DNA of 64,000 nucleotides from Escherichia coli (GTDB lineage: Bacteria; Pseudomonadota; Gammaproteobacteria; Enterobacterales; Enterobacteriaceae), in NCBI RefSeq assembly GCF_003334305.1, contig NZ_QOWS01000002.1; one strand, written 5' to 3'. The position numbers and the translations under genes were made by a program. This document shows positions 31,987 through 34,345 of the stretch, piece after piece; the stretch's first letter is position 1; the number at the start of each line of letters is the position of its first letter. The notes beneath the pieces were generated by a model that did no database searches, was not told the origin of the DNA, and saw nothing but the letters and a program-made list of their open reading frames with translations.

Positions 31987-32052
31987 TTATCCCAGATTAT
32001 TGGCAGCAATATGCCAGGCCATATCACTATTGCGGATTTGAATATGTTTCAT
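31987..32052 (-). CDS. ymjD: 21-codon ORF between ycjY and ymjC (ymjD-like)
   Basis: Reverse-strand ATG at 32050-32052 (overlapping the ycjY stop by 1 nt) through stop at 31987-31989, encoding MKHIQIRNSDMAWHIAANNLG; I recall a tiny annotated ymjD at this position in K-12 but cannot verify. Confidence 0.4.
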   Translation of the reverse strand: MKHIQIRNSDMAWHIAANNLG

Positions 32053-32972
32053 TACAGAGTTTCCTCAAAGAACGGAGCTAATACTGAAATTGCTTCAGCC
32101 ACATAGGCTTTGCCGTCATAAAGATCCATATGGTTTGCGCCTTCAACAATGTGATAGCGTTTATCCTGGCTTGATGCCCGATCGTACAGGTCGTCACTCA
32201 TCCATTTGCTCCCTGCCTGGCTGCCCGCCACAATCTGCATCGGCTGAGTCAGGTACACTTCCGCCATATGGTAAGCATCATAGGTAATAATCTGGTTAAG
32301 GCTGCGCAAAGTAGCGTAACCCGGTGCTGTTGGATACTGCGCGCGAGGGGTGTGGTAATACTCCCAGGCCTGACGCAGTTCTTCGTTCGGCGCATCGGAC
32401 TCCTTCATTGGTGCCAGTGGCATAACGGCATATTCTCCGCTGCTAATATCGCTGGTTCGGGCGTTTGAACCCGCTTCAACGTATGGCAGGGCATCAATAG
32501 ATTTCACATTGTTTTCCCAACCATTACGGAACATCGAACCAATATTGACCGCACTAACGGTACCGATGGCCTTGATGCGGCGATCCTGAATTGCAGCATT
32601 GGCTGTATATCCTGCACCGGCACAAATTCCCATCGCACCAATTCGGGTATTGTCGACATAAGAAAGCGTTGTCAGGTAATCAATCACGGCACTGATGTCT
32701 TCAGTACGAATGTATGGGTTTTCTAACTGACGCGGCTCGCCGCCACTTTCACCTTGATAAGATGCGTCATAAGCAATAGTGACAAATCCCTTTTCCGCCA
32801 GTTTTTTGGCATAGGTTCCGGCCGTTTGTTCTTTAACGCCCCCACCTGGGTGAGATACCACAATTGCCTGATACTGACGGGTTTCATCAAATTTTGGAGG
32901 GAAATAGATCACTGCAGACAAAGAGATGGTTGGATTATTGCTGTTAGTGAAGCTGACTTTATTATTCATCAT
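32052..32972 (-). CDS. ycjY: alpha/beta-hydrolase fold protein
   Basis: Track ORF 32052..32984; start tentatively at the ATG giving MMNNKVSF... (306 aa); serine-hydrolase nucleophile elbow GICAG. Start could be 12 nt further upstream. Confidence 0.85.
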   Translation of the reverse strand: MMNNKVSFTNSNNPTISLSAVIYFPPKFDETRQYQAIVVSHPGGGVKEQTAGTYAKKLAEKGFVTIAYDASYQGESGGEPRQLENPYIRTEDISAVIDYLTTLSYVDNTRIGAMGICAGAGYTANAAIQDRRIKAIGTVSAVNIGSMFRNGWENNVKSIDALPYVEAGSNARTSDISSGEYAVMPLAPMKESDAPNEELRQAWEYYHTPRAQYPTAPGYATLRSLNQIITYDAYHMAEVYLTQPMQIVAGSQAGSKWMSDDLYDRASSQDKRYHIVEGANHMDLYDGKAYVAEAISVLAPFFEETL

Positions 32973-33042
32973 TCCGTTCCTCATGGAGTTGTCGGTTCGT
33001 TTTAACGGTTGGTGATATCACTATAGATATTGATCATTAAGT

Positions 33043-33085
33043 TGATTAGACCCAAAATCATGATTAGACCTATCATTTAAATGAT
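33043..33085. promoter_or_regulatory. candidate PgrR (LysR-type) operator in the ycjY/pgrR divergent promoter
   Basis: Direct repeat TGATTAGACC at 33043-33052 and 33061-33070, followed by the perfect 14-bp palindrome ATCATTTAAATGAT at 33072-33085, 25 bp upstream of the pgrR ATG. Confidence 0.4.
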
Positions 33086-33109
33086 TAATAGATTGCATGG
33101 AGATACTGA

Positions 33110-34009
33110 ATGAAGCGTGAAGAAATCGCTGATCTGATGGCGTTTGTCGTCGTTGCAGAGGAGCGTAGCTTCACTCGTGCAGCAGCCCGCCTGAGCATGG
33201 CGCAGTCAGCTTTAAGCCAGATAGTGCGTCGTATAGAAGAACGATTGGGATTGCGGCTTCTGACGCGAACCACGCGCAGCGTTGTTCCAACTGAAGCGGG
33301 CGAGCATCTTTTGTCTGTTCTTGGCCCTATGTTGCATGACATAGATTCAGCCCTGGCATCCCTGAGCGAGCTGCAGAACCGCCCATCCGGGACAATACGT
33401 ATTACTACTGTAGAACATGCAGCAAAAACGATATTGTTACCAGCAATGCGCACATTCCTGAAATCGCATCCTGAAATTGATATTCAGCTCACCATTGATT
33501 ATGGTTTGACCGATGTCGTTTCTGAACGTTTTGATGCAGGCGTCCGTCTGGGTGGGGAGATGGATAAAGATATGATCGCCATTCGAATCGGGCCAGATAT
33601 ACCAATGGCTATTGTTGGCTCACCGGATTATTTTTCTCGCCGAAGTGTTCCAACGTCAGTGTCACAATTAATAGATCATCAGGCAATTAATTTGTATCTT
33701 CCCACATCGGGTACAGCAAATCGCTGGAGATTAATACGCGGTGGACGTGAAGTTCGTGTTCGCATGGAAGGTCAGCTTTTACTGAATACGATAGACCTGA
33801 TCATTGATGCTGCAATTGATGGGCATGGATTGGCGTATCTACCTTATGATCAGGTTGAGCGGGCTATTAAAGAAAAAAAACTGATACGTGTTTTGGATAA
33901 ATTCACACCAGATTTACCCGGTTATCACCTGTACTATCCACACCGTCGACATGCTGGCTCGGCATTCTCATTATTTATAGATAGGCTGAAGTATAAAGGT
34001 GCTGTTTAG
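33110..34009 (+). CDS. pgrR: LysR-family transcriptional regulator
   Basis: 299-aa ORF with N-terminal LysR HTH (FTRAAARLSMAQSALSQ). Confidence 0.9.
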   Translation: MKREEIADLMAFVVVAEERSFTRAAARLSMAQSALSQIVRRIEERLGLRLLTRTTRSVVPTEAGEHLLSVLGPMLHDIDSALASLSELQNRPSGTIRITTVEHAAKTILLPAMRTFLKSHPEIDIQLTIDYGLTDVVSERFDAGVRLGGEMDKDMIAIRIGPDIPMAIVGSPDYFSRRSVPTSVSQLIDHQAINLYLPTSGTANRWRLIRGGREVRVRMEGQLLLNTIDLIIDAAIDGHGLAYLPYDQVERAIKEKKLIRVLDKFTPDLPGYHLYYPHRRHAGSAFSLFIDRLKYKGAV

Positions 34010-34345
34010 CACTACTTGCTGATACATTAATTTAATTTCTCTCTTAACGTATTCTCAGTTCCTTTCAACGTTTTGGTTATTTTTTATTCTTCGTACAATG
34101 GCGACAGATGCTGATTATGATACCGAAAACTGGTTTGAACGTGCGAAGCCTGAACGTAGTGTTCGGTGTTCTATGTGCTTTACCGCATTTTGGCGTCGAT
34201 TATTTACACTAAATCTGATTTAATATATTGATACATAAAACATTTTATGCTTCCTGTGTCACTTTTTTGATGGAAGTTGTTTGCATTTCTTTAAGGCGAA
34301 ACAAATAATTACGCATCAATTTTAATGTCGGTTAGAGGGAAACTT

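Follow-up and report, generated by a model that had tools for sequence, protein, structure and literature searches.

The question raised by this locus is what the very short open reading frame between ycjY and ymjC of Escherichia coli represents: a small gene in its own right, or something handed down from a longer one. The frame, which corresponds to ymjD, lies on the minus strand at positions 31987..32052 of the window (that is, the whole stretch of 64,000 nucleotides of E. coli DNA that was analysed). It follows ycjY (32052..32972, minus strand), which encodes an alpha/beta hydrolase of 306 aa with a solved structure (5xb6), and precedes ymjC (31799..31981, minus strand; 60 codons). The next downstream gene is mpaA (30989..31717, minus strand; murein tripeptide amidase), and pgrR, the divergent LysR-type regulator of the ycjY-ymjDC-mpaA unit, occupies 33110..34009 on the plus strand. 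The original prediction, which was made from the sequence alone, described a 21-codon frame whose start overlaps the ycjY stop by 1 nt and whose end falls 5 nt before the ymjC start. All of this was borne out on reading the sequence: an ATG is followed by 21 sense codons and a TAA (product, MKHIQIRNSDMAWHIAANNLG), the ycjY TAA (32054..32052) and the ymjD ATG (32052..32050) have base 32052 in common within TAATG, and the ymjD stop (31989..31987) is separated from the ymjC ATG (31981..31979) by the 5-nt spacer TTTTC (31982..31986, minus strand).

The same prediction tentatively mentioned an annotated ymjD at this place, which proved correct. In NC_000913.3, positions 1390868..1390933 are annotated as ymjD (b4673, 'uncharacterized protein YmjD'), with ycjY (b1327) and ymjC (b4525) on either side, and MKHIQIRNSDMAWHIAANNLG was found as an exact peptide in protein collections. 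The ymjD gene of K-12 MG1655 (b4673, YP_009518774.1, UniProt YMJD_ECOLI) agrees with that of the window in locus, length, overlap with ycjY and spacing to ymjC, and 65 of the 66 nucleotides are identical. Codon 12 reads GCC (Ala, the ancestral residue of the longer gene described below) in the window, whereas it reads GAC (Asp) in K-12 MG1655. The window derives from an E. coli other than K-12 and was 100% identical to several natural isolates across 341 nt. A full-text literature search on ymjD, b4673 and ymjC returned operon listings and nothing else relevant, and ymjD is unmentioned in the supplement of PMC8921622. It should be noted that ymjD itself is already a known gene and that decay of the kind described below is ordinary.

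The origin of the frame can be read from E. coli 13KWH46, in which ycjY, a second hydrolase gene (hyd2; 310 aa, WP_000680602.1) and a gene for a 212-aa SDR oxidoreductase are all intact and the same TAATG overlap is found. Nucleotides 1-55 of ymjD (window 32052..31998) are identical to the 5' end of hyd2 at this locus (L086:1446-1500; 55/55, 0 mismatches), and nucleotides 56-66 (window 31997..31987, ATCTGGGATAA) are identical to its 3' end, stop included (L086:2368-2378; 11/11). The intervening 867 nt of 13KWH46 (L086:1501-2367) are absent from the window, where the deletion junction falls between 31998 and 31997; as 867 nt correspond to 289 codons, the deletion is in frame. The 5' segment (31998..32052, minus strand) comprises the first 55 nt of hyd2, namely codons 1-18 and the first base of codon 19, and the 3' segment AT-CTG-GGA-TAA (31987..31997, minus strand) comprises its last 11 nt with the native stop. 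YmjD is made up of hyd2 residues 1-18, the residue of a hybrid codon (AAT) and the final Leu-Gly, followed by the native stop of hyd2. Among hyd2 orthologs, the C-terminus ends in HLG-stop in Serratia PL17 and in HLE-stop in Pseudocitrobacter, and the hyd2-type N-terminus MKHVQIQNADMAWHIAAN... of the Citrobacter, Shimwellia, Serratia and Rhizobium orthologs aligns to YmjD residues 1-18. Across the hyd2 stop and the SDR start, the intact allele reads ...CTGGGATAAGTTTCATGAGAAATATTATGAAAAATG and the window ...CTGGGATAATTTTCATGAAAAATG.

On the basis of these results, we put a probability of roughly 85% on the reading that ymjD is the stump of a tandem paralog of ycjY, that is, a deletion-remnant pseudogene of the alpha/beta hydrolase gene hyd2, whose peptide is most likely functionless yet most likely translated. 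Because the ends of ymjD are identical to those of hyd2, its overlapping start, its GAGG site and its spacing to the next ATG were inherited from the ycjY-hyd2-SDR operon; the 5-nt gap before ymjC is the ancestral distance from the hyd2 stop to the first in-frame SDR ATG. The geometry is therefore as it had been described, but it is no property of a small gene, having come from a 310-codon hydrolase through an 867-nt in-frame deletion. Intact hyd2 (WP_000680602.1 in 13KWH46, frameshifted in EDL933, with orthologs in Citrobacter, Shimwellia, Serratia, Rhizobiales and Bacteroidota) has the same start codon, Shine-Dalgarno sequence, first 55 nt, last 11 nt, stop and position between ycjY and the SDR gene as ymjD, whereas in the window the 867 nt for residues about 19-308, which amount to the whole catalytic fold, are gone. 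Whether so short a frame could have arisen by chance is moot, since its descent from a longer gene accounts for every base. The ancestral unit would have consisted of ycjY, hyd2 (310 codons) and the SDR oxidoreductase gene in this order, adjoining the divergent pgrR. One 867-bp in-frame deletion in one Escherichia lineage took hyd2 codons 19/20 to 308 and left the start codon on the ycjY stop, the Shine-Dalgarno sequence, 18 N-terminal codons, one hybrid codon, the last two codons and the gene's own stop.

The state of hyd2 in other species was examined in 80 loci obtained by a scan with YcjY as the query (one genome per species), in each of which the DNA just past the ycjY stop was read. A hyd2 homolog was found directly downstream of ycjY in 54 of the 80 loci and was near full length in 49 (tblastn), and an SDR oxidoreductase gene was found downstream of ycjY in 24. 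Intact hyd2 is both widespread and ancestral. The TAATG overlap of Pseudocitrobacter, Shimwellia, Citrobacter and Serratia marks the start of a long gene of 306-310 codons (MKHVQIQNADMAWHIAAN(V/I)QFPPAFDESKQYP...), and in many Alphaproteobacteria and Bacteroidota hyd2 comes after ycjY with a short spacer. The hyd2 product and YcjY are paralogs (42% identity, E 1e-78); hyd2 has the alpha/beta-hydrolase Pfam domains Peptidase_S15, Abhydrolase_1, Hydrolase_4 and DLH, and its closest solved relative is YcjY itself (5xb6). Besides E. coli, the short ymjD form was present only in Escherichia sp. E1V33 among the 80 loci. Outside Escherichia, the frame after ycjY was 306-324 codons long or had decayed in other ways. 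In Serratia sp. AKBS12 (L009:3921-3990), hyd2 has decayed independently and a 5-codon ORF (MKHIG followed by a stop) is left: a deletion fuses hyd2 codons 1-4 (MKHI) to the 3' end of the SDR gene, of which the final 22 codons are left (...KHIGENIGVNQPG...), with the junction at the common AAACATATTGG (K-H-I-G) microhomology. Independent decay was also seen in Kluyvera genomosp. 1 (L010:3921-4030), where hyd2 contains in-frame stops.

Two further observations concern the gene neighborhood. The SDR gene of Citrobacter sp. Awk 4 (L008:4860-5105) carries an internal deletion and encodes 81 aa. Moreover, YcjY protein identity is 70-97% across Enterobacteriaceae, Rhizobiales, Rhodobacterales, Acetobacteraceae, Burkholderia, Acinetobacter, Bacteroidota (Chryseobacterium, Chitinophaga and Flavobacterium) and a Nostoc MAG, and hyd2 often follows ycjY, sometimes together with the SDR gene. 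Such conservation is far too high for vertical descent and therefore suggests that ycjY(-hyd2-SDR) may be a widely transferred cassette of two or three genes.

Population counts were made in 5426 complete E. coli genomes using a 100-nt probe that spans ymjD from the end of ycjY to the beginning of ymjC (coverage of at least 80%). This junction probe was matched in 3948 of the 5426 genomes, and the hyd2 interior was kept in 1283. In the hyd2-bearing genomes, the match to the probe ends at position 74, which is the inferred breakpoint, or at 77 where the next bases match by chance. That the junction is shared speaks for one deletion that spread afterwards. Three alleles with an open frame were distinguished. 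The 21-codon allele (GGATAAT) was found in 2288 genomes with a 42-nt junction probe; the 24-codon allele (GGAAAAG; 1519 genomes) has its stop changed from TAA to AAA, so that the frame reaches a TGA overlapping the SDR ATG; and an inferred intermediate (GGATAAG) was found in 7 genomes. These open-frame alleles amount to at least 3814 genomes, which might be held against a mere relic but is to be expected anyway for 66 nt given the low divergence of E. coli.

The surrounding genes also differ among strains. O157:H7 EDL933 (L084:3056-3986) has the layout of 13KWH46 with a +1 frameshift in hyd2, strain MS20675 has ymjD together with an intact SDR gene, and K-12 and the window have ymjD together with ymjC. 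Within ymjD, synonymous changes were seen at codons 7 and 20, and the A12D change of K-12 affects a residue that is Ala in 9 of 9 aligned full-length homologs and in the other two YmjD alleles. An IS1 element lies after ymjD codon 7 in strain YZ22PE106, and another lies between ymjD and ymjC in strain HCP30S3_I2. The change of stop codon, A12D, the IS1 insertions and the independent decay of hyd2 all point to relaxed constraint on the peptide. Interruption of the frame in close relatives had been named beforehand as evidence against a gene here, and in this respect the picture was mixed, as the frame has 310, 24 or 21 codons or is cut by IS1. The locus thus offers a natural series of operon decay and coupling, from three intact genes through loss of the middle one and then of the third as well to IS1 insertions.

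As a separate observation, the whole pgrR-ycjY-ymjD-SDR block is absent from strain HS-02 (L085 compared with window about 31780..34100), in which mppA adjoins mpaA, and about 190 of the 5426 genomes had no match to the 100-nt probe. In view of these genomes, the pgrR-to-SDR block behaves as an indel island between two murein-tripeptide genes.

The original prediction, which placed ymjC in the chain from ycjY to mpaA, missed that ymjC is a second deletion remnant, in this case of the SDR gene. It contains the first 46 codons of the 212-aa SDR oxidoreductase followed by 14 unrelated codons, with the junction between 31843 and 31842. The deletion of 665 bp corresponds to L001:2779-3443, shows about 1 nt of microhomology, and removed the rest of the SDR gene and about 165 nt past its stop; the gene is intact in, for example, MS20675, 13KWH46 and EDL933. 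RefSeq describes ymjC as a partial 'NAD-dependent dehydratase ... missing C-terminus'. Like ymjD, ymjC (b4525) is an N-terminal stump produced by a deletion within the same operon. However, its deletion overruns the end of the SDR gene and gives an unrelated tail, whereas that of ymjD is internal and in frame and reuses the native stop.

The start of the SDR gene has changed along with hyd2. A loss of 12 nt between ATGA repeats accompanies the hyd2 deletion, the intact allele reading TAAGTTTCATGAGAAATATTATGAAAAATG and the ymjD alleles TAA(T/G)TTTCATGAAAAATG. In hyd2-intact alleles (L086:2376-2400 compared with window 31975..31992), the hyd2 stop is followed after 5 nt by an in-frame ATG, which precedes the annotated SDR start by 12 nt (MRNIMKNVL...), and precisely these 12 nt are gone from the ymjD alleles. 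The upstream ATG may be the true SDR start in intact alleles.

With regard to translation, a Shine-Dalgarno sequence, GAGGA (32062..32066, minus strand), lies inside the 3' end of ycjY and can form a duplex with the 3' end of 16S rRNA. Its GAGG (32066..32063) is 10 nt upstream of the ymjD ATG and gives an anti-Shine-Dalgarno duplex of -6.2 kcal/mol, compared with a background mean of -2.4 and with 7% of random sites reaching -6. The same sequence is found upstream of intact hyd2 in 13KWH46, the gene that it formerly served. The corresponding site of ymjC or the SDR gene is weak (-4.0 to -4.2 kcal/mol), as is that of mpaA (-2.9 kcal/mol). Overlapping stop and start codons are known from textbook cases of translational coupling such as the junctions of the trp operon. 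ymjD likewise has the overlap characteristic of a coupled cistron, that is, TAATG with a Shine-Dalgarno sequence in the upstream gene, and the 24-codon allele adds an ATGA overlap with the next gene. Unlike in classical coupling, the middle 'gene' at ymjD is a relic of 21-24 codons and no functional cistron, and the dependence of its translation on that of ycjY is a prediction. Coupled translation from ycjY through ymjD to ymjC is plausible on this geometry, which agrees with part of the original proposal of coupling along ycjY-ymjD-ymjC-mpaA. The extension to mpaA was ruled out by its weak Shine-Dalgarno sequence and by the gap between the ymjC stop and the mpaA start, which measures 81 nt in strains of the K-12 type and 290 nt in those that have an intact SDR gene.

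If the remnant behaves as its initiation region suggests, ribosomes that finish ycjY or bind GAGG would most likely still initiate at the relic ATG whenever the operon is transcribed, and would make a peptide of 21 residues, or 24 in the other common allele. Termination would fall 5 nt short of the next ATG or overlap with it, so that a passive coupling by termination and reinitiation to the SDR or ymjC frame would persist. In the alpha/beta fold of 310 residues, the peptide would make up the first strand-forming residues; it varies in length and sequence, is not conserved as a short form beyond Escherichia, and most likely has no function. In K-12-type strains, including that of the window, the downstream SDR gene has been destroyed as well, and the ycjY-proximal part of the operon would thus be decaying.

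One counterpoint is that an in-frame deletion preserving the native start and stop, an outcome with a prior of about 1 in 3, could reflect selection for continued translation. The frame would then be kept by selection as a relay, in which translating matters and the peptide does not: its translation would pass ribosomes from the ycjY stop to the weak SDR start and so avert polarity. We consider this unlikely, and no more likely is the related proposal that coupling was preserved after loss of the middle gene by keeping only the hyd2 start and stop, with the TAA-to-AAA/ATGA change as an adaptive tightening. The weak SDR site and the in-frame junction would fit such selection, and so would the distribution of alleles, since in every case sampled the 24-codon allele, whose TGA overlaps the SDR ATG (ATGA), stood beside an intact SDR gene and the 21-codon allele beside a truncated one. 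However, there are exceptions to this pairing: in Escherichia sp. E1V33 the 24-codon allele occurs next to a truncated SDR gene, and truncation of the SDR gene is likewise seen in the seven genomes that carry the intermediate allele. Besides the one-in-three chance of an in-frame result, an out-of-frame deletion would likewise end near the SDR start, which makes the benefit doubtful; IS1 insertions are tolerated; and in the window a relay would have nothing to serve, the downstream gene being dead already.

It is also very improbable that the 21-residue YmjD has gained a function of its own. Its annotation as a protein in NC_000913.3 would favor such a function, and ymjD is said to have been named in the small-protein screen of Hemm et al. 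in 2008, in which a tagged version was reportedly detected. Against this stand the absence of the short ORF outside Escherichia (among the 80 species' loci, only Escherichia sp. E1V33 had it), the variable C-terminus and length, the replacement of the invariant Ala by Asp in K-12, and a hydrophobic stretch too short for a membrane helix. In a Ribo-seq study (PMC10746267, Table S8), ymjD appears as a 'Previously known sORF', and of the Ribo-seq, RNA-seq and translation-efficiency values given for it none is significantly changed by acid stress; its place among known sORFs would speak for a functional protein, and the lack of significant regulation in these Ribo-seq or RNA-seq comparisons against one. 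The same values also tell against the opposite extreme, to which we give hardly any weight, namely that ymjD is an untranslated annotation artefact whose frame is open only through the short time since the deletion and is unused by ribosomes. The frame is indeed short, and its descent from hyd2 is its sole demonstrable property. Furthermore, published operon and regulon listings place ycjY-ymjDC(-mpaA) under the control of PgrR, a LysR regulator, and expression of a unit reportedly so controlled may be low (PMC3946193; PMC5934670). However, the complete initiation region (GAGG at -10, ATG on the upstream stop) has been retained unchanged from hyd2, which other strains have in intact and presumably expressed form.

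The deletion-remnant reading has consequences mostly for annotation hygiene. ymjD, which is counted among the small proteins of E. coli, consists of the two ends of a deleted hydrolase gene joined together, and we suggest that it be treated as an expressed pseudogene remnant and not as a candidate regulator. For catalogs of small ORFs, the locus calls for caution, as a frame can owe a good ribosome-binding site, a coupled start and even its ribosome density to a gene that has since died. Older GenBank or EcoGene annotation reportedly described ymjD as an expressed deletion or fusion remnant; the present comparison arrives at this origin base by base, and the allele frequencies are added here.

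RNA-level alternatives were considered separately. A search of 31500-33200 against Rfam gave no match at E <= 1, there was no terminator-like site on the minus strand between ycjY and mpaA, and the RNA folded (MFE) no better than shuffles (z = +0.65). An RNA element in the gap between ycjY and ymjC was rejected on these three grounds, and so was a leader peptide or attenuator uORF, for which an alternative structure or terminator would be expected.

Several minor observations were made in the same region. A sigma-70-like promoter match lies within ymjC, upstream of mpaA (31839..31866, minus strand; TCCACA-16-TAAAAT, 9/12); it may be due to chance, as the count of such matches in the region was no higher than in shuffles. 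Antisense ORFs are present on the plus strand at 31980..32081 (33 aa) and 31895..32041 (48 aa), in a region where hyd2 and SDR ancestry accounts for the whole sequence. Finally, the ORFs found mechanically exceed the annotation for mpaA (262 aa from TTG 31777, compared with 242 aa from 31717) and for ycjY (310 aa from ATG 32984, compared with 306 aa from 32972). For ycjY, the Shine-Dalgarno duplex is -6.9 kcal/mol at ATG 32972 and +0.1 at ATG 32984, which supports the annotated start.
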